Shown piece by piece: positions 3,884-40,623 of a stretch of 49,224 bases of DNA. The translations under genes and the position numbers were made by a program. The stretch lies in IMG/VR virus record IMGVR_UViG_2563366934_000004; one strand, written 5' to 3'. The notes under the pieces are model-generated. The model had not been told where the DNA came from. It saw only the letters and a list, made by a program, of their open reading frames with translations, and did no database searches. How positions within the stretch are numbered: position 1 is the first letter of the stretch; each line of letters starts with the position of its first letter. Source of the DNA: a virus. Taxonomy: Duplodnaviria; Heunggongvirae; Uroviricota; Caudoviricetes.

Positions 3884-6846
3884 TATGCAAGCCTCACAAT
3901 ATAGTTAAATGCGATGTTTTTGACGGTGTTTTCCGCGTTACCAGCAGCGTTAACGGTGATGGTGTGTCCATGTGAACCAATCGCAACGGAGTGCGTATGA
4001 GCACCAATACTGACAGTATGTGCATGTGCGCCTGCGCTTGCAGCAGTGCCGGACAGCGAGTGGGTATGAGCACCATCTGATGATGTCTTCCCTGCATTAC
4101 GAGTCTGGCCACTACCGCTTGTTGTGCTCATAATCCCCGCGCTTAGATTTGAAATCGCGGTATAACCATTAGGGAAAATGCTCGTGTTCGTGCCACCAAA
4201 TGCACCGGAACTCTTGTGTTGGTGCGCACCGGCACTATTTGCAGTCCCGCTAATACTATGGGTATGCGCCCCGGTGTTATTCGTGGATTTGGTTCCGTAA
4301 TCAAACGACGATGTGTTTTTCGTCCCCAAATCCGTACTGGATGCGCTGGCGCTGTGGGTGTGCGATTTAATGCCGTCCTGTTCCTGAGACAATACGGCAC
4401 GACCACTGGCGGGTTTGCCCTTAATCGTCCAGCCACGCATATCAGGGATCACGCCTGACGGATAAGCGGCTGCAAGTTTCGGGTATGCAGATTTGTCAAA
4501 AGTCTGCCCCTGCATCAGGGCATAGCCAGACGGAACGGTATCTGATGGCCACGGGATTGGTGCGCCAGGCGGATAAAACTGCTCTGATGGCGTATAGAGT
4601 GAATAAACTGTACCGTCCGTTAACCCTTCCGGCTTATTAGCAGAATATGCTGGTGACGTATGAATCGTCACGCTGGCATTACTGGTATAATCCCATTGAA
4701 TATTTACACCAGTCGCATAATTTCCGATTGCAACGTAAATATCGTAAGTATCACCAGATGTATTGACCCAGGCAAAATTTGTAAACCCTGTCGATGTGCG
4801 CTGCCATAAAGCACCAGTAATCCCCTTCGGATTACCATTACCTGCACGCAAAACAAGTTCAGATATACCTGCCTGTTGAGGTGACCCCACGTTAAATCCC
4901 GCGCCACCAATCAACGTAATTGAAACAACAGAACTCGCCTGTGGCATGGTTACCGTTGCTAATTTGAACCAACCAGCACCACCGCTGAATGACATTGTTG
5001 TTGAGTTAAGCGTACCAATATCTTTCGGCGTCAGTGTTATATCAGCTGAAAGCGCCTTACCATTCACCTTACGGGCAGAAGGTACCCGACCATTCGCATT
5101 ATCATTAGCTGCTTTCACTGCTTTCGGTGTCGCGGCAAGCGTTTCAGATGCGCTGTTGGTTGCACTACTGAGCTGGACAATTCCTTTTTGTGTTGTCGTA
5201 GCGTCCTGAGCAGTATATTTCCCGTTAGCAAGGTCATAGGCTGCCTTTACCGACTTTGGCGTTGCCGCCAGCATTTCAGATGTGCTGTTGGTCGCGTTGC
5301 TAAGCTGAACTATCCCTTTCTGTGCTGTCGTTGCATCCTGTGCGGTGTATTTCCCGTTAGCCAGCTCATACGCGGCCTTAACGGCTTTTGGCGTTGCCGC
5401 CAGTGACTCGGAAGTGCTGTTAGTCGCACTGCTGAGCTGTACTATCCCCTTTTTCGTCGTGCTCGCATCCTCAAGCGCCACGGCGGATGCAATATCCTCT
5501 GCCCGTTTTGCCGCTGTCTCGGCGCGCGTTGCCGCGGATTCCGCCGTACTTTTGCTCTGAGCTGCCGCCGTCGCACTGCCAGCAGCCTCTGTCGCCTTCG
5601 TGGATGCCGTCGTGGCGCTGCCCCTCGCTGCTGACGCTTGTCTGGTCGCCTCATCTTTTGAAGCAGACGCAGATGATGCCGATGACGCCGCCGAACTGGC
5701 GGACGATGCGGCAGCCGTTTTTGAGGATTCTGCGCTGGTTTCCGACGCTTTCGCGTTCGTTTCGGATGTCTTCGCTGCGGAAGCAGACCTCGCTGCTGCG
5801 CTGGCCTGTTCAGTGGCTTCGCCAGCCTTCGTTGTGGCTGTTGAAGCGGATGATGCAGCACTTTCTGCCGATTTTCCGGCGGCGGAGGCACTGGCTGAGG
5901 CCTGCCCGGCACTTGTTGACGCGGCGCTGGCAGATGATGCAGCCGCTGTTTTTGAGTCTGCTGCTGCGGAGGCACTCTGTTCCGCTGCCGTTTCAGAAGA
6001 CTTAGCGTTCGTCTCGGACGTTTTTGCCGCTTTCGCGGAATTGCCTGCCGCCGTTGCCGAGGAAGCGGAACTACTGGCGCTCGAGGCTGCGCTCGTTTCT
6101 GATGATTTTGCCGCCTCTTTTGAAGCCGACGCATCCCTGGCTGAGGAGGCAGCTTCTGACGCTTTCGTGGTCGCGGTGGATGCAGAAGTGGCGGCTGATT
6201 GTTGTGACGCTGCCGCATTCGTTTCTGACGTTTTCGCCGCACCGGCACTGGTAGCCGCCGCGCTTTTTGAGGACTCTGCAGCGGCAGCACTTTTTGATGC
6301 TTCAGTGGCCTTTGTTGATGCCGTTCCTGCGCTGGAAGACGCTGACTGAGCCGACGACGCGGCCTGTCCGGCTGACGTGCTGGCTGCGCGTGCTGAGTCC
6401 GCAGCATCAGTCGCATGGGTTGCCGCCTCACGGGCTGATGTGCTGGCATCGCTGGCTGACTTCTTCGCGGCTGCCGTGTTCTGTGCCACCGCGGACGCGT
6501 TACGCGCCACCTCTTCCACCATCAGCTCAAAACGGCGCAGTGCCTCCGGACGGACATCATCCTCAGTCATGGCACCAAGAAAATCATTCAGCGTACCGGG
6601 TTGGGAATCTTCATACACGGTGATGGTCCCGGCATGTGACGGCGGGAATCCCTCCACCAACAGAATAACGCTGTACTGCCCGTACTCAACGTCCATGCTG
6701 TAACGCCCGGCTTCATCCGGATTTTCTGAGGCCAGCGTGTTCACCACCACCGTGGTGCTGTTACGTTTTGCTTTCAGCTGGATTGTGCAGTTCTGTACCG
6801 GTTTTCCTGTGCCGTCTTTCAGTACACCTGAAATCTTTACTGCCAT
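3883..6846 (-). CDS. stf: Side tail fibre protein (Stf)
   Basis: Start taken at [12 protein letters not shown] (ATG 6844-6846, GGGGTGA RBS). Conserved N-terminus, long Ala/Ser/Thr-rich central region, three tandem 44-aa repeats, His-rich HxH C-terminal receptor-binding region. Confidence 0.85.
5090..5490 (-). repeat. Three tandem ~132-bp (44-aa) coding repeats inside stf
   Basis: Near-identical 132-bp units (phase markers at 5143, 5275, 5407) encoding ...[44 protein letters not shown]... Confidence 0.8.
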
Positions 6847-6861
6847 ATTCACCCCACAAAA

Positions 6862-6885
6862 AAGCCCGCCTGAACAGGCGGGCTG
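6862..6885 (-). terminator. Rho-independent terminator after lom
   Basis: Minus strand GCCCGCCTG-TTCA-GGCGGGC followed by TTTTTT. Confidence 0.6.
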
Positions 6886-6910
6886 TCATAACACTGTGTT
6901 ACCTGGCTAA

Positions 6911-7510
6911 TCAGAACTTATAACCGACACCCACGATGAAACCGTCAGTGCGCCAGTCGCCACTGCCGGAGCCTTCATAAGCAATATCAATGGCCACGGA
7001 TTCGGTCGGGTTAAACTGCACGCCAGCTCCCCACGCCAGAGACGTGTTGCTGTGGCGACCGTCATCACTTCCGGTCAGCACGTCGTGCGTTTTCCCCTTG
7101 TTGTCAGTTACGCGGAGATAATCCCCGGAGAAAGTCGACACACGGCTGTAAGCCATACCCGCCATCGCATACGCGCTGAACCATTCATTCACGCGCACAG
7201 ACGGCCCCACCATCACGCTGAACCAGCGGTTACGCACGGAATCTTCATGCCAGCGGGTATCGCTGTAACGGGTAAGCTGGCGATTCTTGTCTCCTGCATA
7301 GCTGAATGACGTCACCAGCCCCAGTGTGTCCGTAAACTCATAACGGTATTTCACGTTAATCCCGTTCAGATCATCGCTGCCGGGAACGTTCGTCGAGGCA
7401 TGAAGATACCCCGCGCTCAGCGTGGACTGATGTTCAGATGCCCATGCAGGCGCACCGGATACGGCCAGACAAATGGCTGCGGAAAAAATGGCGGCATAAA
7501 GTTTACGCAT
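6911..7510 (-). CDS. lom: Lom/Ail/PagC-family outer membrane protein
   Basis: 199 aa, signal peptide ([24 protein letters not shown]), beta-barrel-like alternating pattern, C-terminal GYKF; position between J and stf as in lambda. Confidence 0.85.
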
Positions 7511-7533
7511 AATTACCTCTCGCTTTTCTGCAA

Positions 7534-7560
7534 TAAAAAAGGCACCATTTCTGGTGCCCT
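7534..7560 (-). terminator. Rho-independent terminator after J
   Basis: Minus strand GGCACCA-GAAA-TGGTGCC followed by TTTTTT. Confidence 0.55.
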
Positions 7561-7579
7561 TATATGGGTTATAACAATT

Positions 7580-10500
7580 TCAACGAATACTGATGCCGGA
7601 AGCGGCTTTTTTGGTCACAATCACCGTACAGTCGGTGATATTACCTGCCCGCTGATTGCCTTTATGGAAAACCTTAAACTCCAGAGTGACGCTTCCCCTG
7701 CCACTCGGCATATCAATAACCGCACTGTAGCTACCGGGAATGGCCCCTTTAGTTTCTCTGGATGCGATTAATACACCGTTTTTGCGAACTTCAAAACCAT
7801 ACCCCGTGTATCTTGTACCTCCCGGGTTATTACCACTTCCCGGATCGCTATACGCTATTCCGTTAAAGATAATGGGCGGAATAATGATTTGACGGTCAAA
7901 GTTATGATCATCGCTGATGGTGACTGTAACCGTCCCGTTTGGTGTTTCCGTATTACCCCACGTACCAGCCTGTTTCGGGAATGATTTGGATACAGCTTTA
8001 ACGAAGTCACCTCTGACCTGAGTCGCCTCCAGCATGCCCTTAATCGTACAGTTTTCATTTACCGTGACATTGTTGAGCGTCCCGGCGTTCGCATTCACAC
8101 TGCCACTGATATCCGCATTTTTAGCGGTCAGCTTTCCGTCTGATGTCAGGGAAAATACCGGAGGACTGCCACCACTGGTAATGGTGGGGGCCGTCAGGCG
8201 CTTCAGGAACACGTCGTTCATGAATATCTGATTGCCCTGCGCCACAAACATCGGCGTTTCATTCCCGTTTGCCGGGTCAATAAATGCGATACGGTTAGCG
8301 GCAACCAGAAACTGACTCAGTTTGCCTTCCTCCGTGTCCTCCATGCTGAGGCCAATACCCGCGACATAATGTTTGCCGTCTTTGGTCTGCTCAATTTTGA
8401 CAGCCCACATGGCATTCCACTTATCGTTGGCGTCCTTCCACTCTTTCGAAAACTCCTCCAGTCTGCTGGCGTTATCCTCCGTCAGCTCGACTTTTTCCAG
8501 CAGCTCCTTGCCGAGATGGGATTCGGTTATCTTGCCTTTGAAAAAATCCAGGTAACCTTCCGCATCATCGCTCGCCCGACCGACGGCCTCCACGAATGCC
8601 GATTTGCCAACGGTGTTCACACTGCGGATATAAAAGTAATAATCATGGCCCGGTTTGATATTGATACTGGCGGCTATCCAGTACAGCGCCGTACCAAGAT
8701 AGCGGGCTGTGGTTTCAACCTGCCTGATATCGGTAATCCGCTTTTCCGAGAACCAGAACTCAAACTGTACCGTCGGGTCATAAACCGCAAGATGCGGCGT
8801 GGCGGTTATCTGAAAATAGCCCGGCGTCAGCTCAATCCGCGACGGTGCTGCCGGTGCGGCAATCCGGAACGATACCGACGCCGGATCGCCCTGCTGCCCC
8901 CACGCATTTACCGCCCGGACTGTCAGCCTGTAGTTCCCCAGCGCCAGTTGCGTGAAGCGGTATGTGGTTTCCGTCGTCCGGGCCGTGCTGACCAGCCGCT
9001 CACTGCCGTCATCCGCTGTTACGGTCAGACGGAGCAGGAAGCTCACGCCCTTCACCACCTTCGGCGTGTCCCAGCGCGCCAGCACCTGATATTCCCCGCT
9101 GTCTGCGGTGACTTCGGCGGTCAGGTGCTGCACCGCTGGCGGCGTGACACCATTCACCGTGCTGCTCTGGTCGCCGTCAAAGTGCGCCCCGTTATCCACG
9201 ATGGCTTCTTTTTCCGGTACATGCTGCACGGCAGTGATGGCATACGTGCCGTCATCGTTCTCACGGATACTCACACAGCGGAACAGGCGCTGACGCAACG
9301 TCGGCAACTTCAGCCCCCACACACTGTATTCTGCAACGCCATCAGGAACCCGGTTCACTTTCACCTTAAGTCCGTCGGTGACGGACTGAACCTCCACGCT
9401 GACCGGATTACCACTTCCGTCAACCAGGCTTATCAGCGTGGTACCGGAGGATGGCAGCGTGATTTCACGGTCGAGCGTCAGCGTCCGGGTCTGGCTGTTC
9501 ACCGCCAGCACGCGACCACCGGTGCTGATACCGGCATAGTCATCATCGCAGATTTCAATGACATCGCCCGGTACATGGCGAAGCCCTTCAGCACCCACGC
9601 TGAAATCCACGGTCTGCGTCTCCAGCAGTTCAGTTTTAATCAGCCACAGCCCGGCGCGGTGTGCCTGCCCCCGGCTGGTACAGCCAAAGGCATCCATCTT
9701 CGTGACATTACGACCGTAACGGGCAATGGCCTGCGTATCTTCAACAAGCTCTGTCGCCGTCTCCCAGCCGTTGTTCGGGTCAATCCAGTTCACCTCAACG
9801 GCATTATGGCGGTCCTTCAGGGCGCTGAAGCTGTAGCGGAACGGCGCGCCATCATCCGGCATCACCACATTACTGCGGTTATAGGTCCACACCTTATCTG
9901 ATAGTCGGTCCTGCACGAACGTCAGCGTCTGCCCGTTCCATACCGGCATACAGCGCATCGCCGAGCAGAAATCACTGAGCACATCCCACGCCTTACGCTG
10001 CGTGGTCAGCCAGGCATTACAGGTGATGCGCGGCTCCGTGCCGCCAAAACCGTCCGGCACTGACTGGTCGCAGTACTGGCCGATGACATACAGCGCCCAT
10101 TTATCCACATCCGCAGCACCAAGACGTTTCCCCATGCCGTAGCGCGGGTGGGTCAGCATATCCCACAGACACCAGGCCGGGTTGTTGCTGTATGCCGGCT
10201 TAAACGTTCCGTCCCAGATACCGCTGTATTGCCGCGTCTGCGGGTTATAGTTCGACGGCACCTGCAGAATGCGCCCGCGAAGATGATAATTACGGCTCAC
10301 CTGCTGGCTGCCGAACTGCTCCGAATCCACCTGCACGCCGACCAGTGCCGTGTTCGGGTAGCCCTGTTTCACATCGATGATTTCGGTGTATGACGACCAG
10401 AGCGTTTTGTTCTGCAGCTGGTCTGTGGTGCTGTCCGGCGTCATCCTGCGCATCCGGATATTGAACGGGCGCGGCGGCAGGTTACCCACCACCACCGAGG

Positions 10501-27816: not shown

Positions 27817-28029
27817 TCAAAGTGCCACTACATGAACAGCTGCAGGGCCTTTAGGTCCGTTCTCAATACCAAATTCGACTTCCTGATTCTCAGTTAACGT
27901 TTTGAAATCGTTGCTCTGAATAGCTGAGAAATGCACAAACACATCTTTGCTACCATCTTTCGGCGTGATGAAACCAAAACCTTTTTCAGGGTTAAACCAT
28001 TTCACTAAACCAGTCATTTTGTTAGACAT
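27817..28029 (-). CDS. cspI: Cold shock protein (CspA family)
   Basis: 70 aa; [21 protein letters not shown]... with RNP1/RNP2 motifs; long upstream leader typical of csp genes. Confidence 0.9.
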
Positions 28030-28392
28030 CATTATTACCTTTTGAAGAAGTTAGCCCTTGGGCAGAATGGTCCGAAAAAAAATATCAGAGAGAAAAACCA
28101 ACAAGGAAATCTCAAGAGGTACAAATAATAAAATTATAACAATGACTGCTTCAGATAATTTTGTAACAAACCAGAACACCATTAACGCATGATTAACCAA
28201 CCATAGCAAGGATTACTTTTGTAAAGAAAAACACACGAATGAAACAATAGCTTTATTTATTAATAAAACGTGTCATTCTGTCTAATGACCTTTTATCTTA
28301 CCCTTAAGATTTCAAGGATTTTGACTCATGGAAGAGTCCTTTTTATTTAAATTTCACATTCAGCGCTAAAAATAATCCGATTTAATATTAAT

Positions 28393-29416
<1,024 letters not shown>

Positions 29417-29420
<4 letters not shown>

Positions 29421-29728
29421 AGATATTTATGATGAGGACGCTCGTGCTTATTGGCAGGATTTTCAATCTTAAAGGAGTACTGATGCTGCAGATAAGACTC
29501 AACTTTTTCTGACAATTTTTCTGCTACTTCCAGGAAGACTTGCCGGACGCTCATTCTGGCTGCTGCCTCATAAAACTCCAGCGCAGCTCCTTCAACACGG
29601 TCCATGGCGACATCCAGGCCAAAAATTTCACCGTCAAAGCGTTCTTTGTCCTGTAAGGCTACAGTTACCGTAACTTTATTCTCAAAATTACGGACTCCTT
29701 TCACAACCAGTTCATAGTCTTGAGTCAT
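29417..29728 (-). CDS. ydfR: YdfR-family protein (DUF1327)
   Basis: 103 aa between holin and endolysin, as in Qin. Confidence 0.65.
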
Positions 29729-29732
29729 TGGA

Positions 29733-29948
29733 TTACTCTCCTCTCGCAGCCTTACGCCTGTCTTCTTTAATCTTGAAATAAAGATTTGTCAGGTACGTCA
29801 GCAGGCCAAATACCAGGCTACCCAGCACACCTATTGCTGCCCACTGTGAGGGCGTGACTTTATCGAGCAGCTGTAAAAACCAGTAGCCAGCACTGCCTGC
29901 GGAGGTGCCGTAGGCAATGCCTGTTGAAATTTTGTCCATGGATTTCAT
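29733..29948 (-). CDS. essQ: Pinholin S21-like (class II holin) with dual-start motif
   Basis: 71 aa from [26 protein letters not shown]... matches recalled phage 21 S; two TMs; MKSM dual start (antiholin/holin). Confidence 0.85.
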
Positions 29949-30199
29949 AGCCTCACCTCCGCACGGAACGGATGGCATAGTTATTATGTGTAGGCTTCCA
30001 GACACATCAATCAGAGCCTTAATTGATATATATGCTGGAGACGATGCAATATAAAAAGCTCGCCGTAGCGAGCTAATAAAATGTATTTCTCTGATATTAT
30101 GTTTATTTGTATTAGCTCAGACTTGACATCACAGGTTTCGTATATAGAACATCATCAAATCTGTCAGTTTGCTATGAATGAGATATAGTAATTGAAGAG

Positions 30200-30595
30200 C
30201 TAACCTCGCATGTCAAAGCCAGATTTCTGAAAATCTCTGTAGACTTCCGGATTGTTGAAGGCCGGAAATTTGGCTTTATGAGCTGCGGACTTTATCGCTT
30301 CGCAATAGGCTTTATCACCGTTACTGGTAGATATTTTTAACGCCGTGCCATCCTGAGAGAATTCCATATGCAACCTGCATTTTTTCCCTTTCCAGTTATG
30401 CGGCTCATCAAGTTTGGCATTAATTGCAGCTCTGATTCCCCGCGCTTGCGCCCCCCATTCATCCTGATCATCCCAGCGTCCTGAACTACAACTACCTGTA
30501 GCAGTAGTTTTGTGGCAATCTGAAGGGTGTAAAGGTGTGCATCCCGCAACAAAACCGACCCAAAAAGTCAACATAACGATTTTCTTTAATCCCAC
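30200..30595 (-). CDS. Lipoprotein with TolA C-terminal (domain III)-like fold
   Basis: 131 aa; GTG start with GAGGAG RBS; signal peptide + lipobox VAGC; C-terminal region aligns with TolA domain III pattern (GKKCRLHMEFSQDGTALKIS..GDKAYCEAIKSAA...NNPEVYRDF). Confidence 0.6.
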   Translation of the reverse strand: MGLKKIVMLTFWVGFVAGCTPLHPSDCHKTTATGSCSSGRWDDQDEWGAQARGIRAAINAKLDEPHNWKGKKCRLHMEFSQDGTALKISTSNGDKAYCEAIKSAAHKAKFPAFNNPEVYRDFQKSGFDMRG

Positions 30596-30745
30596 TTCTT
30601 GCTCCTCAATCCATTAAAATCTCAGCAATAGTAGTTGTTACGTCCGCCACTGGCTCAGAGCTGACTATCCGCTAAATTTAGCTCAGTGCCGTAGTTGTGT
30701 CAGAACAAACCTAAGCCGAAACCGTTTATTACAAAACAATAAATA

Positions 30746-31174
30746 TCAGGGTTTAAAATCCAGCACCCCATTTTGAAATACTTTATATACTTCCGGCGAA
30801 GGGGGGGCAGGTATATCAGCATTCTTTATCGCATTCATCGCTTCACGACATAAATCGAGGTCTCCACTTTCTCTTTTAACCTCCAGTAGAAGGCCATTCG
30901 GGGCCATATGCATTCTCAGTGTACACTCTTTTCCTGAATACTTACTCGCATCCCCGAACTGTTTTTCGATGGCGCTCTTGATTTGATGGGCATACAGACG
31001 GATATCCTCACTAACATCAGAAGTACGTTCAGATGAACTCACATACTGTGTCTCTATTGCTTTATCGGAGTAATATGATGTACGGTCATGATAATTTGTC
31101 GATACAGCATCAGTGCACCCGATAATAATCCCACTAATAATCAACGTAAGAATTGATGCGCTACGAAAACCCAT
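30746..31174 (-). CDS. Lipoprotein with TolA C-terminal (domain III)-like domain
   Basis: 142 aa; ATG with GAGGA RBS; lipobox IIGC; C-terminus YAHQIKSAIEKQFGDASKYSGKECTLRMHMAPNGLLLEVKRESGDLDLCREAMNAIKNADIPAPPSPEVYKVFQNGVLDFKP closely parallels recalled E. coli TolA C-terminus (...GQIKSAIESKF.DAS.YAGKTCTLRIKLAPDGMLLDIKPEGGDPALCQAALAAAKLAKIPKPPSQAVYEVFKNAPLDFKP). Confidence 0.7.
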   Translation of the reverse strand: MGFRSASILTLIISGIIIGCTDAVSTNYHDRTSYYSDKAIETQYVSSSERTSDVSEDIRLYAHQIKSAIEKQFGDASKYSGKECTLRMHMAPNGLLLEVKRESGDLDLCREAMNAIKNADIPAPPSPEVYKVFQNGVLDFKP

Positions 31175-32024
31175 TTTTCCTCACATATGTCATATAGTAA
31201 AGGATTATATATACCGTTGTTTTGGACGCTCAAACAGCGAATCAGATCAAATAAAACGCACATTTGTTAACATTTACACAAAGTCTGCGTGGGATATTCT
31301 GAAAGAATATCCATAATGTGGAGAGAATCTATTAAAGTGCATGGTGCCGGATGCCTCCCGGTGAATTCAGTACCAGCACCTGAATCCGCGATTATCCCAT
31401 ATACCTACTCGCTGATTGCCCCTCCGCACAGGGGGATTCACCATGCCAGTTTCTTTTAACAAACTCCCCGCAAACCAGAGAACAGTCAACCGCCTGAATT
31501 GTGAAGTATTTAAAAATTTCTCCCGCTAACTGATACCCGGCTAACAGTCTGGCGTTTTCTTTTTCAGCAACGGGAAAGCAACAACCACCACACCCGCCAC
31601 CAGCACACCGTCAGCCAGCACTGACATTATCCGGCTGCTGCAATGCCATTCACAAAAACAGTAAGCAATCACTTTTTACCGTAACAGGTGATAATCCAGA
31701 TATGTATCTACCCCAGATGAGTAATCCGAAGTTCATCCATACCACAGGTCCTGGCTATTCTGTTGTACTCCTGAACAAGAGCAAATAATTCTGAATTAGC
31801 AACCATGAACTCATCGCAAACCCTCTGTATAGCATCACTATTCAGAATAATAACGTCTCTTCCCGAAAGACGATCAGGAGCACAGAACAAAACTGTCAAA
31901 CGGCTGAAGGCCTTTGCTCGTGCTGCATTGACTATATCAATACGCTGCCTAAGGATGAATGATCTTACCCAGCAATAGTGGACACGCGGCTAAGTGAGTA
32001 AACTCTCAGTCAGAGGTGACTCAC

Positions 32025-32324
32025 ATGACAAAAACAGTATCAACCAGTAAAAAACCCCGTAAACAGCATTCGCCTGAATTTCGCAGTGAAGCCCTGAAGC
32101 TTGCTGAACGCATCGGTGTTACTGCCGCAGCCCGTGAACTCAGCCTGTATGAATCACAGCTCTACAACTGGCGCAGTAAACAGCAAAATCAGCAGACGTC
32201 TTCTGAACGTGAACTGGAGATGTCTACCGAGATTGCACGTCTCAAACGCCAGCTGGCAGAACGGGATGAAGAGCTGGCTATCCTCCAAAAGGCCGCGACA
32301 TACTTCGCGAAGCGCCTGAAATGA
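32025..32324 (+). CDS. insE: IS3 transposase OrfA (InsE)
   Basis: [32 protein letters not shown]... HTH + leucine zipper; matches recalled IS3 InsE. Confidence 0.9.
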
Positions 32325-33187
32325 AGTATGTCTTTATTGAAAAACATCAGGCTGAGTTCAGCATCAAAGCAATGTGCCGCGTGCTCCGGGTGGCCCGCAG
32401 CGGCTGGTATACGTGGTGTCAGCGGCGGACAAGGATAAGCACGCGTCAGCAGTTCCGCCAACACTGCGACAGCGTTGTCCTCGCGGCTTTTACCCGGTCA
32501 AAACAGCGTTACGGTGCCCCACGCCTGACGGATGAACTGCGTGCTCAGGGTTACCCCTTTAACGTAAAAACCGTGGCGGCAAGCCTGCGCCGTCAGGGAC
32601 TGAGGGCAAAGGCCTCCCGGAAGTTCAGCCCGGTCAGCTACCGCGCACACGGCCTGCCTGTGTCAGAAAATCTGTTGGAGCAGGATTTTTACGCCAGTGG
32701 CCCGAACCAGAAGTGGGCAGGAGACATCACGTACTTACGTACAGATGAAGGCTGGCTGTATCTGGCAGTGGTCATTGACCTGTGGTCACGTGCCGTTATT
32801 GGCTGGTCAATGTCGCCACGCATGACGGCGCAACTGGCCTGCGATGCCCTGCAGATGGCGCTGTGGCGGCGTAAGAGGCCCCGGAACGTTATCGTTCACA
32901 CGGACCGTGGAGGCCAGTACTGTTCAGCAGATTATCAGGCGCAACTGAAGCGGCATAATCTGCGTGGAAGTATGAGCGCAAAAGGTTGCTGCTACGATAA
33001 TGCCTGCGTGGAAAGCTTCTTTCATTCGCTGAAAGTGGAATGTATCCATGGAGAACACTTTATCAGCCGGGAAATAATGCGGGCAACGGTGTTTAATTAT
33101 ATCGAATGTGATTACAATCGGTGGCGGCGGCACAGTTGGTGTGGCGGCCTCAGTCCGGAACAATTTGAAAACAAGAACCTCGCTTAG
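32321..33187 (+). CDS. insF: IS3 transposase OrfB (InsF; DDE integrase-like, expressed as OrfAB by -1 frameshift)
   Basis: 288 aa overlapping the orfA stop; DDE-type catalytic region. Confidence 0.9.
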
Positions 33188-33432
33188 GCCTGTGTCCATA
33201 TTACGTGGGTAGGATCAGAAACACCCCGACGCCTCATCAATATTCACTCTACCCACACCATATGAATGATAAATATTTAATGCTGAAAAAACCATTAGAC
33301 CGTATAACAAACACTCAATCAATACTTAACAGAACTTTTATTTTTGACAAACATATTATGTTTTCAACAATATCCTGAGCCAGGTATATTCCAGTATAAG
33401 GCTCTGCCGGAAGGAATCTGGAAGAATGAATA

Positions 33433-33509
33433 TGGCGCGCTGTACTGGATTCGAACCAGTGACCGATTGCTTAGAAGGCAATTGCTCTGTCCGGCTGAGC
33501 TAACAACGC
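33433..33509 (-). tRNA. argO: tRNA-Arg (anticodon UCU)
   Basis: 77 nt; cloverleaf folded by hand: acceptor GCGTTGT/ACAGCGC, D-arm GCTC/GAGC, anticodon arm ATTGC-CTTCTAA-GCAAT, T-arm CACTG-GTTCGAATCC-AGTA; CCA encoded. Confidence 0.8.
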
Positions 33510-33609: not shown

Positions 33610-33685
33610 TGGTGGCCCTTGCTGGATTTGAACCAGCGACCTGGCGATTATGAGTCGCTCGCTCTCACCACTGAGCTAAAGGGCC
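33610..33685 (-). tRNA. ileZ: tRNA with CAU anticodon, tRNA-Ile2-like (ileZ-type; could also be read as Met)
   Basis: 76 nt; acceptor GGCCCTT/AAGGGCC, anticodon loop CTCATAA, T-loop GGTTCAAATCC, CCA encoded; body resembles recalled E. coli ileX. Confidence 0.75.
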
Positions 33686-33721: not shown

Positions 33722-33749
33722 AATAAAAAACCCGCTCGGCGGCGGGTTG
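33722..33749 (-). terminator. tR'-like rho-independent terminator downstream of PR'
   Basis: Minus strand CCCGC-CGCCGA-GCGGG followed by TTTTTTATT, about 60 nt downstream of the putative PR'. Confidence 0.6.
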
Positions 33750-33828: not shown

Positions 33829-34650
33829 TTACCTAGTTACCTTTTTTAACTGCCGCTCAGCCCATGCTTCTTCAATATCAAACCGGGTCACCAGCGCATC
33901 ATAGAATTTCTTAACTGTTTTTTCCCATGACGCGCGTGTTATCTGGTTTGTCACCTCGCATATAGCATTAAATGCCTCCGTTGATGGTAGTCTTTCATAG
34001 CCACGACCACCACAACGCTGGCAGTCTCTGATAACAGGCATACCACGTTTTACCGACTCTTCACGGTGAATGGCGACACCACGCCCACGGCAATCCTTAC
34101 AGGCGGTGGAAACCTCACCCTTTCCGCCACACTCCGGACAGGCAACTTTTACCACCTCCCTGACTTTTTTCCATTCTTCCCAGTAAGACGGATACACACC
34201 TTTCGTACACTTTGCCCATACCGGCGGCTTACCATCCGGATACTGGACCTTGTTTGTAAAAACTACGCTTTCAATAAATTTTTCCCCATAGCAACAAGGG
34301 CACTGCTTTTTACTCGCTGCGCTGCGGGCATAATCCTCAAAAGCGTACGAAGCCATAATGCGCATCACTACCGGTTTTATTTCTGCCGGAAGTTTTCTCA
34401 ACGCCGCCACACGATCGCACCGACTGAGTGCATAATCTGCCAGTAATTCTGTTGCCCGCGCCCTGTCATTCATACTGATGCCCATTTTCCCCAGGAACGC
34501 AGAAAACCCCATCTCAGCCCGATTCTGTGTCATGCCCTGCGCGGCCATCACATCAGTGATACTCAGCGCATCTTTTGACGTTGAAGCCGATGCATCGGTC
34601 AGGCAAGGGGATTTTGGGGAGTAGTATTTCGGTAAATCTTCCAGTTTCAT
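33829..34650 (-). CDS. quuQ: Late antiterminator Q (Zn-finger type)
   Basis: 273 aa, ATG 34648-34650; several CxxC pairs (CPCC, CPECGGKG, CKDCRGRG, CQRCGGRG); located directly upstream of PR'/tR' and lysis genes. Confidence 0.75.
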   Translation of the reverse strand: MKLEDLPKYYSPKSPCLTDASASTSKDALSITDVMAAQGMTQNRAEMGFSAFLGKMGISMNDRARATELLADYALSRCDRVAALRKLPAEIKPVVMRIMASYAFEDYARSAASKKQCPCCYGEKFIESVVFTNKVQYPDGKPPVWAKCTKGVYPSYWEEWKKVREVVKVACPECGGKGEVSTACKDCRGRGVAIHREESVKRGMPVIRDCQRCGGRGYERLPSTEAFNAICEVTNQITRASWEKTVKKFYDALVTRFDIEEAWAERQLKKVTR

Positions 34651-37053: not shown

Positions 37054-37795
37054 AGCCTGCTTCTCCTTGCCTTTCGGCACGTAAGAGGCTAACCTACATG
37101 TGTCTAGCATAGATATGGCCTCAGATTAATGTTAAGCGTCTTGCCGGACGCGTAATGTTAACTGGGGCTTTTCTCTATCTGCCTTTGGTGTTGATGCCCG
37201 AGGCAGATAGCCTCAAGCACCCGCAGCAATTCTACTTAACTACCGTTACCTCGCCAATATGAAATCAATCAGAAAGGTGATCCATAAGAACAACAGCAAG
37301 ACAATAAATTGCCATTACAGCAGCAATAGCCAGCGCACATTTGAGAACCAGCACCACAACCTCCTGTATTGGACGTACACCAGTCCTGATAAATATGAGG
37401 CTGTCTCGTCAGTGATTCAATACAACTACTGGGTATAGTTTCTATGATTTTGTTCTGTGGAAATGGAAAACAGCAACCAGTCACGACCAGCACTTCTTTA
37501 AACATGCCAAGTCACACGCAAGCCAACATTATAGTTCCCTTTGAGCGAGCAGATGAAGCTAGCAAAAATATTGATCACTTAGGATGCATTACTAACGTTG
37601 CTATGTGTTAACGAACAGGGAGTGGGTCATCAGCATAAATATTTATGCAGTAGGTTTCTTTTAGGACTAGATTAATCAAAAACATTTAGATAAAATTATA
37701 AAATCAAGAAATTGGTGGCAATTAATCTTTAATTGTGCCAGCTGAATTTCGTTATTATAGAAGATTAGCTTTTTTTTGAATATTTGGAGAGTAAA

Positions 37796-38491
37796 ATGTT
37801 AGAACCACCAAAGAGTTATAATGAAATGTTGCCTATGCTCCATAAGGCGACTTTTATTACTACATTTATATTTTACCTATCATTAGTCATTTATGGCTAC
37901 ATGCCATTGGTTGGCATTAATGCCAAGTATATCCCCCCCGTTAAAGACTACGAGGAATTTATTAAATGGATATTAACCTTTGGCATATTACCAATTGCAT
38001 CTTCAGTTTTTTGGTCAGTAATTAGTGGAGCTTTAGATCTACATAATAATGTAGCAAAAATTATTGGAATAAGGAAGATGTGGGATAGTCATTTAATTAT
38101 TAAACCATTAGCAAAAATTGCAGGCGTTACGAGAAAATTAACTACTGATGAATCTCACAAGGTAATGAGTAAACTGTATTACCCAGAAGTTAAAGAGTTA
38201 AAAGACAAACATTACGTTGAACTTTTCTGGAACAAAGTTTATTACTTTTGGGTTTTCTTTGAACATACAGTAATCGCATTTGTTACTATTTTAATAATAA
38301 GTATCGCCAAATTAACAAATATATTCTCTGTTACTGGCTCTTTAATTAATCTTTGGTTGTGGATTATTTCTCTTGTCGCATTTGACTTCCTTATTTTCAT
38401 AGCATCAGTTAAACCAAGAACAGAAAGCCAAGTAAGACAAATACCTGATAGCAAAATAAAAGAATTCTTTAACAATAACAATATTTTTTAA
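37796..38491 (+). CDS. Integral membrane protein (about 4 TM), unknown function; AT-rich cargo
   Basis: 231 aa from ATG 37796 (GGAG RBS 6 nt upstream); four strongly hydrophobic segments; AT-rich codon usage. Confidence 0.6.
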   Translation: MLEPPKSYNEMLPMLHKATFITTFIFYLSLVIYGYMPLVGINAKYIPPVKDYEEFIKWILTFGILPIASSVFWSVISGALDLHNNVAKIIGIRKMWDSHLIIKPLAKIAGVTRKLTTDESHKVMSKLYYPEVKELKDKHYVELFWNKVYYFWVFFEHTVIAFVTILIISIAKLTNIFSVTGSLINLWLWIISLVAFDFLIFIASVKPRTESQVRQIPDSKIKEFFNNNNIF

Positions 38492-38497
38492 ACGAGG

Positions 38498-39157
38498 TTG
38501 ATTTTGAATTATAAAATAAATGGAATAAACATACGTTCAGAAAATGCAGCGAAACCGCACACTATGCCATCTAACTATCTCTGTAAACAGATTGAAAGCA
38601 CTAATAAAAATGGCAATGCCCTTGATTTTGGATGTGGAAAACTTAGATATTCAGAACAATTAGTAAATAAATTTGAAACTGTGACATTTTTAGATTCCAG
38701 AAGACAACTAGAAAGAGTGCAAATTATCAGAGGTGTACAAACCACGATTCCAGATTACGTGATAAATAACTATAAGAATGCTAATATTGTTTCTTATGAA
38801 AATATAGATAAAATAACAAATCATTATGATTTCATACTTTGCGCAAACGTGCTTTCCGCAATTCCATGTGAATCCACAATTCACAAAGTCCTCAGTGCGA
38901 TTAGAGAATTATTAAAGAGTGATGGTGAAGCACTGATTGTCAATCAATACAAAAGTTCTTATTTCAAGAGGTACGAGAGCGGTATTAAACATTTGCATGG
39001 GTATATATACCAAAACTCTCGTAATGCTTTCTACTATGGTTTATTAGATGTGGATACTGTAAGTAAAATATGCTCAGATAATAATTTAGAAATAATAAAA
39101 TCATGGAGCAAAGCAGGTAGTTCATATGTGGTTGTTGGTAAACATATACATATTTAG
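38498..39157 (+). CDS. Class I SAM-dependent methyltransferase (small, Rossmann-type)
   Basis: Motif I LDFGCGKL and downstream FILCANVL motif; starts 7 nt after the membrane-protein stop (exact start uncertain: TTG 38498/38504 or ATG 38564). Confidence 0.6.
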   Translation: MILNYKINGINIRSENAAKPHTMPSNYLCKQIESTNKNGNALDFGCGKLRYSEQLVNKFETVTFLDSRRQLERVQIIRGVQTTIPDYVINNYKNANIVSYENIDKITNHYDFILCANVLSAIPCESTIHKVLSAIRELLKSDGEALIVNQYKSSYFKRYESGIKHLHGYIYQNSRNAFYYGLLDVDTVSKICSDNNLEIIKSWSKAGSSYVVVGKHIHI

Positions 39158-39471
39158 TTTATTTCAACAAATTATTAGAAAGAGTGATTTGCTTGTTAAT
39201 CATTAGCTCGGCAGTGCCGGATCAACATGACCCTGCCACTTAGGCCATTGCCGGTTTACCTACTTTTGTAAGGTTCAGCATGAAGTTTTTATATACTCTT
39301 CCTAATATCAATAGTGATGCTCGCTTATGTTAGCTGCTTCTTGTACATAGTAGCCTTCTCCGACAGTACTGCAATGAGCGGAGAGTAAAAGTCGATAAAC
39401 AATAAGGAGGTTCACAATAAATATTTCTCGGTGAAACTTTCAAAGCATTCTCTGTTTTGCTAAATCGACAA

Positions 39472-40371
39472 TTATAAATCAACAACATTTAGTGTTATAT
39501 CAATATTATTTAGCCTTGCAATCTCTGATGAATCACTTGCTATTTTAGCTTTTAATTTATCAATATTAATCATATCTTCATGGCTTATATAAACCATATC
39601 ACCTTGGTTAACTTTAGATTTGTTCACTATGGCTTGAATAACAGACAAATCATCCATTACACCTCTCATAAATTTCACCATGCTTTGATCTTTGAAGTCA
39701 GATATCGATTTTGAACGTTGCTTACGTTGAATTGTTCCTTTTGTAATTACTTCATTAATTTCTTTTAAACCAGTGAGCATATCAGACAGACTGCCTTCGC
39801 AACTCATCCGATGTTTTATTGCATTGCGATTAATAATATTGAGTATAATTTCGAGTGAATCTTTATCACTCCATGGATGTAATGATGTATAATCATGATG
39901 GCGTCGAATGGCGTCAATCATATCCTGGACCATATCTTCATCTGCTTTATCGCAAAGTTCATTCACGAAATAGCTGGGGTCGATTATTTTACAATAACTT
40001 GGAGTTAGGTATCTTGAGGCTTTACAAAAACCAAAAATATATAAAGTAGAGTATTTATCTTTCAGACTCTCTCCTATTTCATTTGTTTCCTCAAAAGATT
40101 CGATAGTTTTTTTAATTTTTGCTGGACTTGCATTCGTAGTAACTTGAACTGCTATCATGTTTTTATTATCAGCTAAATCAATGGCGGGAAAATTAACTTT
40201 AATCTGATTCATGTTTACCAGTTCACCCATTTTCAGCGCGCGAAACATAAAGATGGTCAATGACTCAATTATTCTTTCCATGTCATGAAAGCCTGCCTGT
40301 TTGCGTTGCGCGATATAAAGCTGGAGTAGTGCAATATCACTCTGTAAGTTTCTAATAAGTGGATCAATCAT
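39472..40371 (-). CDS. Hypothetical 299-aa protein, N-terminal region possibly SMEK-like
   Basis: ATG 40369-40371; AT-rich; N-terminal motif NFPAIDLADNKNMIAVQVTTN recalled (unverified) as characteristic of SMEK-type N-terminal domains; convergent with the membrane/MTase pair. Confidence 0.55.
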   Translation of the reverse strand: MIDPLIRNLQSDIALLQLYIAQRKQAGFHDMERIIESLTIFMFRALKMGELVNMNQIKVNFPAIDLADNKNMIAVQVTTNASPAKIKKTIESFEETNEIGESLKDKYSTLYIFGFCKASRYLTPSYCKIIDPSYFVNELCDKADEDMVQDMIDAIRRHHDYTSLHPWSDKDSLEIILNIINRNAIKHRMSCEGSLSDMLTGLKEINEVITKGTIQRKQRSKSISDFKDQSMVKFMRGVMDDLSVIQAIVNKSKVNQGDMVYISHEDMINIDKLKAKIASDSSEIARLNNIDITLNVVDL

Positions 40372-40623
40372 AGCTAATAATCCTTTTCAATGAAGCTGGA
40401 GGTGTGTTTAACTATTAGTTAAATTTCTATTTTTATAGAAACAAGCTTTACAACTTCATCAAAGTTTCTCAAATCCTAATCCACTTTGCAAATCCACTAA
40501 CCATGCTGAATGCTTTCTGTTGTTAAACATATCCGCTGCTGGCACCAAGCAGACAAACACACTAACTCTACCCTACTCCACAAAAGAGCCAATCAATATC
40601 TGAACTAATAAACTTTAATCTCA

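Follow-up and report, generated by a model that had tools for sequence, protein, structure and literature searches.

Predicted lipoproteins built on TolA domain III in the late region of a Qin-site lambdoid prophage: possible decoys for Tol-dependent bacteriocins and filamentous phages

Gene content of the locus

The DNA analysed here, IMG/VR virus record IMGVR_UViG_2563366934_000004 (49,224 nucleotides at its full length, referred to below as the window), is a complete lambdoid prophage of the Qin site, integrated between ydfJ and rspB, and over bases 1-31959 it shares 99.86% identity with the prophage of E. coli JE86-ST05. On the minus strand, in the interval that separates the gene for the Q antiterminator from the holin gene, lie two adjacent genes for predicted lipoproteins, designated L1 (31174..30746; 142 amino acids, aa) and L2 (30595..30200; 131 aa, read from a GTG start), which were delimited as open reading frames (ORFs) and characterized with Pfam and AlphaFold. 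Each product combines a lipoprotein signal with a C-terminal domain that matches domain III of TolA (TolAIII). A preliminary description made from the letters alone had already placed both ORFs at 30200-31174 and read their lipoboxes as IIGC and VAGC; these readings and the C-terminus that it quoted are correct, and the TolA tail that it gave for comparison agrees with the real E. coli TolA sequence.

The assignment of the domain is public knowledge, since RefSeq names both proteins TolA or TolA C-terminal domain proteins. What appears to be new, as judged from sequence comparison, is that a lone TolAIII on a lipid tether constitutes a distinct and widespread architecture that moves between prophages, plasmids, and chromosomes.

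Sequence and structure of the two proteins

L1 begins with MGFRSASILTLIISGIIIGC followed by TDAV and ends with PPSPEVYKVFQNGVLDFKP. Its signal peptide and IIGC lipobox occupy aa 1-20 (basic n-region with R4, lipobox ...IIIGC20, Thr at +2) and are followed by a disordered linker rich in Ser, Thr, and Tyr (aa 21-50) and by the TolAIII domain (aa 51-142), the coding part of which, 31024..30749 on the minus strand, was delimited by alignment, AlphaFold, and Foldseek. In L2, the signal peptide and VAGC lipobox comprise aa 1-19 (K4, K5, lipobox ...FVAGC19, Thr at +2), a conserved Cys-loop with an acidic/Trp segment spans aa 20-47, and the TolAIII domain extends over aa 41-131. Both signal peptides include a hydrophobic core, and both lipoboxes conform to the pattern [LVI][ASTVI][GAS]C expected among the first 15-35 residues.

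The preliminary description had proposed TolA domain III-like C-termini for both proteins, and profile and sequence searches bear this out. Against Pfam PF06519, whose gathering threshold is 25 bits, L1 scores 82.6 bits (expectation value, E, 2.4e-23; profile positions 4-96 of 96) and L2 scores 54.6 bits (E 1.3e-14; positions 10-92). With phmmer against the TolA chains of the PDB, L1 aligns without gaps to residues 334-421 of E. coli TolA at 58% identity (E 5e-28), and L2 aligns to residues 341-419 at approximately 33% identity (E 5e-9). Structure prediction, which the same description had suggested as a check, leads to the same result, and the lack of structural resemblance that it had named as a refutation is not seen. 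AlphaFold models both domains with a predicted local distance difference test score (pLDDT) above 90, at residues 51-142 of L1 and 41-131 of L2, while the preceding ~50 residues of L1 and the N-terminal ~40 residues of L2 are of low confidence. Both domains show the TolAIII succession of a helix, two strands, a helix, a short helix, and a terminal strand. In Foldseek searches, the best PDB matches of the two models are all TolAIII, with root-mean-square deviations (rmsd) of 0.6-1.1 Å and target TM-scores of 0.84-0.96. The L1 model superposes on chain B of 2x9a with an rmsd of 0.6 Å over 88 columns and a target TM-score of 0.96, its identity to TolAIII chains being 56-60%, and the L2 model superposes on 3qdp with an rmsd of 1.1 Å over 83 columns. 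The entry 2x9a is the complex of TolA with the g3p protein of IF1, an I-pilus filamentous phage that uses TolAIII.

Residues of the three proteins can be equated by a constant offset, in which TolA numbering equals L1 + 279 and L2 + 290. On this scale, C84/C109 of L1 and C73/C98 of L2 align with the C363-C388 pair of E. coli TolA; this disulfide pair is invariant in 22 family members, as is the lipobox cysteine in the family alignment. Two surfaces of TolAIII are known to receive ligands. The edge strand β3 (A415-K420) is bound by the N1 domain of g3p, by colicin N, and by TolB through backbone hydrogen bonds, and one proline substitution, at either D418 or K420, is enough to abolish this binding (PMC4339652; PMC7391070). 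Colicin A binds the opposite edge, β2 (L375-P380), with cation-π contacts to K368, K379, and K396 (PMC3365938). L1 ends in a β3 strand GVLDFKP that is close to APLDFKP of TolA and carries H89, LLEVKR, and K117 at the colicin A site, so that two of the three lysines are retained. In L2, β3 is diverged (SGFDMRG) and none of the three lysines is present.

The RefSeq name of L1, 'tolA', probably arises because L1 exceeds the cut-off of the equivalog model TIGR02794 (75.6 against 59.45); against NF007065 it scores 107.8, with a cut-off of 213, and L2 falls below the cut-offs of both models. The matches of L1 and L2 to these models span only model positions ~265-387.

As a separate observation on L1, a run of seven G (C7 on the coding strand) at 30801..30807 lies just 5' of the part that encodes the last helix and β3. 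Frameshifted L1 alleles with the tail ...PAP(P)LRRKYIKYF, in which the last helix and β3 are lost, occur in several public assemblies (variants P0009-P0017) and may reflect slippage, sequencing errors, or assembly errors.

The start of L2 merits separate treatment. RefSeq begins the L2 homologue at an internal ATG (124 aa; in the region of window positions 30574-30595), which cuts off the basic n-region. Alignment of upstream regions delineates a conserved leader at 30630..30596 on the minus strand, with the Shine-Dalgarno sequence GAGGAG, and this leader travels along with L2 on plasmids and in the chromosomes of other genera. The GTG at 30595 seems the better supported start, because it follows this Shine-Dalgarno sequence, restores the KK n-region, and belongs to a start and leader (including the KKIV residues) conserved in plasmid and chromosomal homologues. 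The protein read from it begins with MGLKKIVMLTFWVGFVAGC followed by TPLH.

The mature N-terminus of L2 (residues 20-47; window 30455-30538) reads CTPLHPSDCHKTTATGSCSSGRWDDQDEWG and carries two extra cysteines and an acidic/Trp motif. Its consensus, CxPLHPSxCHKTTAxGSCSSGRWDDQDEWG, is near-invariant across at least 14 genera, even at synonymous divergence (dS) of ~1. The segment is unstructured in the AlphaFold model, and a sequence search of the PDB returned a chance hit only. A resemblance of SSGRWDDQDEWG within it to a TolB box, that of colicin E9 being DGSGWSSENNPWG, was considered and set aside as unsupported on these two grounds.

Distribution, origin, and selection

L1 and L2 differ in where they are found. 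L1-type genes hardly occur outside E. coli and Shigella and sit almost exclusively in the Q-holin slot of lambdoid prophages; they are present in 898 of the 5426 complete E. coli genomes, where 959 of their 962 places are chromosomal. Variants of L1 that are 91% and 66% identical occur without L2 and always between a Q gene and a holin gene, the slot being constant while the Q types and the neighbouring cargo differ. The family of L2 comprises 368 clusters at 78% identity or more, spans at least 14 genera of Enterobacterales, and is represented in 1269 of the same 5426 genomes, its places there numbering 826 on chromosomes and 536 on plasmids. Outside this prophage, L2 occurs on its own.

The lone L2 genes occupy varied settings. 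In Enterobacter, they are flanked at a single chromosomal locus by genes for a glutathione peroxidase and RidA (16 of 24 contigs share the neighbourhood), and in Klebsiella oxytoca and Citrobacter the chromosomal neighbourhoods are ordinary. A genome labelled Serratia marcescens carries a lone L2 after nrdDG, adjoining a pair of GmrSD_N (DUF262) and HEPN genes (loci L165/L166, 6957-8736), a neighbourhood that resembles a defence island. Approximately 600 plasmids carry L2 homologues that are 88% identical. On IncK-family plasmids (MPF_I, I-pilus-type; L173, L175), the homologue lies directly downstream of nikA/nikB-type relaxase genes, and on pO157-type plasmids of O157:H7 (L174) it has the psiB/psiA/hok leading region on one side and toxB on the other. 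Of 50,697 deposited phage genomes, that of mEp460_ev081 is the only one with L1 or L2, and single-protein scans of viral contigs returned near-identical copies only, in no further kind of setting. The family is not phage-specific.

The preliminary description had called the two genes diverged tandem paralogs. Homology stands, at 29% identity between L1 and L2, but a local duplication does not: L1 is nearer to TolA (58%) than to L2, and the two have differing distributions. Tandem duplication was accordingly rejected; the genes were acquired separately, from separate lineages. A recent capture of host tolA as the origin of L1 was likewise discarded, given that the best library hits include no bona fide TolA closer than ~57%; at only 58% identity to any real TolA, L1 represents an old, maintained lineage.

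Both genes evolve under constraint. Where dS reaches 0.5-1.2, pairwise ratios of nonsynonymous to synonymous divergence (dN/dS) for L2 are 0.07-0.15 among prophage, plasmid, and chromosomal copies; those for the L1 domain are 0.12-0.35, with looser constraint on the L1 linker. The cassette of both genes is at least 99% identical in 782 complete genomes. By the dN/dS values, L1 and L2 are maintained genes and not debris. That they are decaying, functionless fragments of a captured tolA, as the RefSeq name of L1 and the frameshifted alleles might suggest, is highly improbable, considering that both ORFs are intact and equipped with new lipoprotein signals and ribosome-binding sites, that purifying selection acts on both domains, that the cassette is so uniform, and that the L1 lineage is old.

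Related lipoproteins and bacteriocin plasmids

The two proteins belong to a wider class. An exhaustive profile search of 1.84 billion representative proteins returned 582 clusters at 50% identity. Among the best 150 of these clusters, 81 are 100-190 aa long, and 59 of the 81 have a lipobox-like motif within their first 50 residues. Under stricter rules, 54 lipoproteins qualify; Asp at position +2 occurs in none of them and Glu in one. This absence of the Lol avoidance signal from all 54, as from L1 and L2 with their Thr at +2, predicts sorting to the outer membrane. In most of the wider family, the C-terminus is exactly ...FKNxxLDFK[PL], which corresponds to the terminal β3 strand of TolA. The named members come from Erwinia, Klebsiella, Enterobacter, and Serratia, and their labels are only TolA or TolA C-terminal domain protein.

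A further family of relatives resides on ColE1-type plasmids of Klebsiella pneumoniae (10,060, 11,970, and 12,747 bp). These plasmids encode a TolAIII lipoprotein of 123 aa with the lipobox LLLTAC followed by K and the end IFKNAPLDFRP, which is 39% identical to L1 over the domain. Its gene overlaps, in the same operon, one for a protein of 121 aa that combines a Sec signal with a TonB C-terminal domain (PF03544, E 9e-11). Both genes are transcribed divergently from an adjoining cloacin-like operon for bacteriocin, immunity, and lysis, as at positions 5641-9406 of locus L215 on the ColRNAI plasmid CP043367.1, and at least 238 plasmids carry the entire 3.8-kb module. On related Col plasmids, the slot of the pair is filled by the exclusion genes exc1/exc2, annotated as protein K/L, and one IncF plasmid presents the order bacteriocin, group II intron reverse transcriptase/maturase (ltrA), exc1, exc2, and a TolA-like gene.

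Another arrangement was recorded. Klebsiella IncR/IncF plasmids (L176, L217, L219) carry a family of TolAIII lipoproteins of 144 aa that are always preceded by a thioredoxin/DsbA-like gene, and on one megaplasmid this pair of genes follows a microcin-type exporter formed by HlyD and an ABC transporter with a C39 peptidase.

Genomic setting and expression signals

In the order of the minus strand, the region reads Q, a tR'-like terminator, tRNA-Met/Ile2(cat), tRNA-Arg(tct), an IS3 copy, a DUF3927 gene, L1, L2, a terminator-like hairpin, holin, YdfR, lysozyme, and Rz/Rz1. The Q antiterminator gene lies at 34650..33829 (ORF and RefSeq annotation of a related locus), and the tR'-like terminator 3' of it was found by terminator scan at 33748..33729. 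The two tRNA genes were called downstream of Q at 33685..33610 (labelled tRNA-Ile in RefSeq) and 33509..33433. The holin gene (EssD/S type; 29948..29733; ORF and RefSeq annotation of a 99.8%-identical locus) opens the lysis cassette, in which YdfR (29728..29417), lysozyme (29420..28887), and Rz (28890..28393) follow, all of these on the minus strand; a lipoprotein ORF (28443..28739) is embedded in Rz. An identity of L1 or L2 as a spanin of the Rz1 type (o-spanin) was rejected; a separate Rz/Rz1 pair is present, and L1 and L2 lie upstream of the holin gene and have a globular TolA fold.

The placement between Q with its tRNAs and the holin gene, recognized in the preliminary description as the late-operon slot for morons, is therefore as described, with two additional elements. 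The first is a gene for a small membrane protein of the DUF3927 family, directly upstream of the cassette (31672..31541, minus strand; PF13064, E 1.7e-27). The second is an IS3 copy at 31960..33210 on the plus strand (orfA 32016-32324, orfB 32321-33187), which lies between the tRNAs and the cassette and is missing in the otherwise 99.86% identical prophage of JE86-ST05. Owing to its position between pR'/tRNAs and the cassette, the IS3 copy may weaken late read-through into the cassette and the lysis genes; the cassette's own promoter-like site would be untouched by it.

That site, a σ70-like promoter TTGAGC-18-TATAAT at 31233..31204 on the minus strand, matches the consensus in 10 of 12 positions, lies ~30 nt upstream of the L1 ATG, and is retained at the locus of the 91%-identical L1 variant (L181). 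Between the L2 stop and the holin start, a pattern match at 30074..30057 (minus strand) identifies a hairpin resembling an intrinsic terminator, AGCTCGCTACGGCGAGCT, with a 7-bp stem of which five pairs are G-C; a T run comes next, and hairpin and run together span 30074..30047. Promoter-like sites numbered 13 in the scan where 7.5 were expected, and terminator-like sites occur in the region at the chance rate, so that the two signals are consistent with independent transcription of the L1-L2 cassette, which is plausible. Its G+C content, 42-45%, is slightly below that of its neighbours and is not diagnostic.

With a promoter-like site before it and a terminator-like site after it in the Q-holin slot, the cassette has, as far as these predicted signals indicate, a classic moron layout. 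The comparison of mEp460, which has other genes between Q and holin, with mEp460_ev081, which has the L1-L2 cassette there, illustrates how the slot changes occupants. Other occupants in lambdoid phages are stx and the lc/nmpC porins, and the Qin prophage of K-12 carries cspB/cspF in it. The preliminary description had likened the position to the site of stx, and in line with this the 66%-identical L1 variant (L180) lies directly upstream of a NanS-p-type esterase gene, the kind of gene that follows stx in Stx phages.

Elsewhere in the window, cspI (27817-28032) lies downstream of Rz, and homology to JE86-ST05 places ynfQ, gnsB, and ynfN there as well; this cold-shock/gnsB/ynfN group forms a second cargo cluster, typical of Qin-type prophages. 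A 3.1-kb island at 37466-40600, in which the window departs from the reference prophage, contains genes for a predicted membrane protein (37784-38491) and for a class I methyltransferase (38498-39157). A minus-strand gene of the island (39472-40371) encodes a SMEK-domain protein that matches Aga REase-PNTD in PADLOC (E 1e-20). This island is possibly a defence module.

Proposed function

We propose that L1 and L2 act as decoys, tethered to the outer membrane, for Tol-dependent bacteriocins and filamentous phages, a reading to which we assign about an even chance. Both proteins would be lipid-anchored at the inner face of the outer membrane, each presenting a free, non-energised TolAIII on a tether of 20-30 residues. 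The translocation domains of group A bacteriocins that bind TolA (colicins A, E1, N, and K, and the cloacin type), and likewise the N1 domain of filamentous-phage g3p, would emerge under the outer membrane in search of TolA and dock on the decoy instead by β-strand augmentation. Since L1 and L2 have neither domain I nor domain II of TolA and hence no force from TolQR, a docked ligand should be stranded; uncoupled from TolQR, import would stall, and the lysogen would be tolerant. In the lysogen, transcription of the cassette would start at its own promoter; once the prophage is induced, transcripts from the Q-dependent late promoter would extend through it. The presence of two differing copies would probably widen the range of ligands, with L1 offering a near-exact β3 site and part of the colicin A site and L2 offering the fold and a β3-like edge only.

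A precedent comes from artificial expression. In the study of Levengood-Freyermuth et al. from 1993, periplasmic TolAIII reportedly made wild-type cells tolerant to colicins E1, E2, E3, and A while leaving them sensitive to the TonB-dependent colicin D, and is also said to have caused leakage of periplasmic proteins. The relevant affinities for TolA are ~1 µM for colicin N and ~40 µM for TolB (PMC4339652), so that a modest amount of decoy could catch invaders without starving the Tol-Pal system.

Indirect support for the decoy comes from three comparisons. The β3 edge strand, to which g3p, colicin N, and TolB bind, is retained; relatives stand beside bacteriocin operons together with a TonB C-terminal domain; and L2 is conserved where lysis genes are lacking. 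That a TolAIII lipoprotein is paired on these plasmids with a secreted TonB C-terminal domain would most easily be read as a block on both import routes. Copies on plasmids also have a rationale under this proposal, since a host of I-pilus- or F-type plasmids is open to filamentous phages that depend on TolAIII. On a wider view, which we hold somewhat more tentatively, a large mobile layer of import-hub decoys may exist in Enterobacterales, in which TolAIII lipoproteins, accompanied in some cases by secreted TonB C-terminal domains, travel on prophages, on conjugative and Col plasmids, and in chromosomal islands. They would render their hosts broadly tolerant, independently of the particular toxin, to bacteriocins that depend on Tol or Ton as well as to pilus-specific filamentous phages.

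Several considerations weigh against the decoy. It could be costly, as free periplasmic TolAIII makes cells leaky; PMC6195910, which uses the system of Wan & Baneyx, describes a leaky or perturbed envelope when TolAIII is exported to the periplasm. Protection might also be narrow, because colicins E2-E9 bind TolB and not TolA, and the ligand of L2 may not be a known colicin, given the loss of all three lysines and the diverged β3 strand (SGFDMRG). The decoy assigns no role to the highly conserved N-terminal Cys-loop and Trp/acidic segment of L2, although the same is true of its rivals. The promoter and terminator of the cassette are consensus matches only, and the sole hint of expression points to the late phase and not to lysogeny: a gene of prophage CP-933O described as TolA-type (EDL933_2012), of ambiguous identity, rises 32-fold after ciprofloxacin. 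Literature searches that combined TolA with the themes of prophage, plasmid, lipoprotein, and decoy found no study of the L1/L2 proteins, and neither L1 nor L2 nor the DUF3927 protein has a match in PADLOC-DB 2.0 at E <= 1.

Alternative explanations

The best-surviving alternative, which we nevertheless consider unlikely, is that L1 and L2 help lysis or release. Bulk TolAIII made from the late promoter would titrate the TolB N-terminus, switch off Tol-Pal, and loosen the outer membrane, thereby aiding spanin-driven lysis, the shedding of vesicles, or, on Col plasmids, the release of bacteriocin. The genes do lie directly upstream of the holin gene in a Q-dependent late operon, TolB uses the conserved β3 site, relatives adjoin bacteriocin-lysis operons, and the ciprofloxacin response of the ambiguous CP-933O gene would fit. 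Leakage caused by periplasmic TolAIII, reported in the 1993 work, would be the effect required, and PMC6195910 agrees. The distribution of the genes argues the other way, however: L2 orthologues are conserved, with dN/dS of ~0.1, as lone chromosomal or plasmid genes with no lysis or release genes nearby, and mEp460 has a full lysis cassette without L1 or L2. Within the prophage, the cassette has promoter-like and terminator-like sites of its own, and the affinity of TolA for TolB is weak. The Col-plasmid relative is divergent from the bacteriocin operon and partnered with a TonB C-terminal domain, which is not known to permeabilise the outer membrane. It is mainly this pairing on bacteriocin plasmids that ranks the decoy above a role in lysis.

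An improbable alternative retains the idea of exclusion and changes the target, which could be a superinfecting tailed phage, a toxin (contact-dependent or of another kind), or conjugative DNA on its way in; the TolA-like fold would then serve as a generic module that captures β-strands. No tailed coliphage and no conjugation step is known to depend on TolA domain III, and the exact β3 motif of TolA, kept across the family, points to TolA's own ligands. What speaks for such a role is that β-strand augmentation on TolAIII is promiscuous (PMC4339652), that the surfaces of L2 are unlike those of TolA at the colicin A site, and that plasmid gene order associates the family with transfer and exclusion, IncK-type plasmids placing the gene between the relaxase and the trbABC transfer genes and one IncF plasmid placing a TolA-like gene after exc1/exc2.

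It is quite improbable, finally, that the proteins are envelope accessories, that is, TolAIII paralogues anchored in the outer membrane that bind a host partner (the TolB N-terminus, CpoB, or another β-strand ligand) and tune the mobilisation of Pal or the stability of the envelope, the phage having picked up a gene for host fitness. The strongly conserved L2 in at least 14 genera, stable at one locus in Enterobacter (16 of 24 contigs), would suit this, and its conserved N-terminal segment suggests a specific partner. Set against it, the family has a patchy distribution and moves among prophages, plasmids, and variable islands, the Tol-Pal system of the E. coli K-12 type functions without L2, and relatives are repeatedly linked to bacteriocin and exclusion genes.

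Significance

Should the decoy proposal be correct, approximately one in four complete E. coli genomes would contain a hidden factor that confers tolerance to group A colicins and to filamentous phages; genomes of O157:H7 would be among them, through pO157. This would bear on competition between gut strains and on therapeutics based on colicins or phages, as well as on the question of why TolAIII genes are found on conjugative plasmids through which the host becomes open to pilus-specific phages. Mimicry of a periplasmic co-receptor would join the known exclusion mechanisms of prophages and plasmids, and a family labelled only 'TolA C-terminal domain-containing protein', or mislabelled 'TolA', would gain a function.

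Comparison with known systems

The closest structural counterpart of L1 and L2 is TolA domain III itself (residues ~325-421; PDB 1TOL, 1S62, 3QDP/3QDR, 2X9A), with which they share the Pfam family, the fold, the disulfide, and an end right after β3. Relative to TolA proper, they lack the transmembrane helix and the long helical domain II, and thus any link to TolQR, and have in their place a low-confidence linker of 20-30 residues. They are predicted to be lipid-anchored from the opposite membrane and are encoded in a prophage late region, away from any tol-pal operon.

Recombinant periplasmic TolAIII (Levengood-Freyermuth et al. 1993; Wan & Baneyx 1998) resembles L1 and L2 in that a free TolAIII is present beside normal TolA, and can serve as an experimental model for them. 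The recombinant domain is soluble, over-produced, and artificial, whereas L1 and L2 occur naturally, would hang on a lipid tether, have diverged in sequence, and are presumably made in small amounts. The nearest natural functional analogues would be Cor and Llp, although these have no kinship with TolA in sequence or fold. Cor (φ80, N15, HK022) and Llp (T5) are small phage lipoproteins of the outer membrane that block an entry route from the periplasmic side by binding FhuA; they plug a receptor, whereas L1 and L2 would imitate a periplasmic co-receptor. The g3p-mediated exclusion exerted by filamentous phages employs the same interaction of g3p N1 with TolAIII β3 in the inverse sense, with a ligand that saturates TolA instead of a copy of TolA that would saturate the ligand.

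As cargo, L1 and L2 share with the other lambdoid morons of the Q-holin slot their position and, by the predicted signals, a layout of promoter, gene, and terminator, and are set apart by what they encode, a TolA-domain mimic; no description of such a mimic as a conversion gene was found in the literature searched. Their architecture recurs in the operon of TolAIII and TonB C-terminal domain genes on Col plasmids, which has the same combination of lipobox and TolAIII on a mobile element and differs in family, in its TonB partner, and in standing next to a bacteriocin operon and not to lysis genes.

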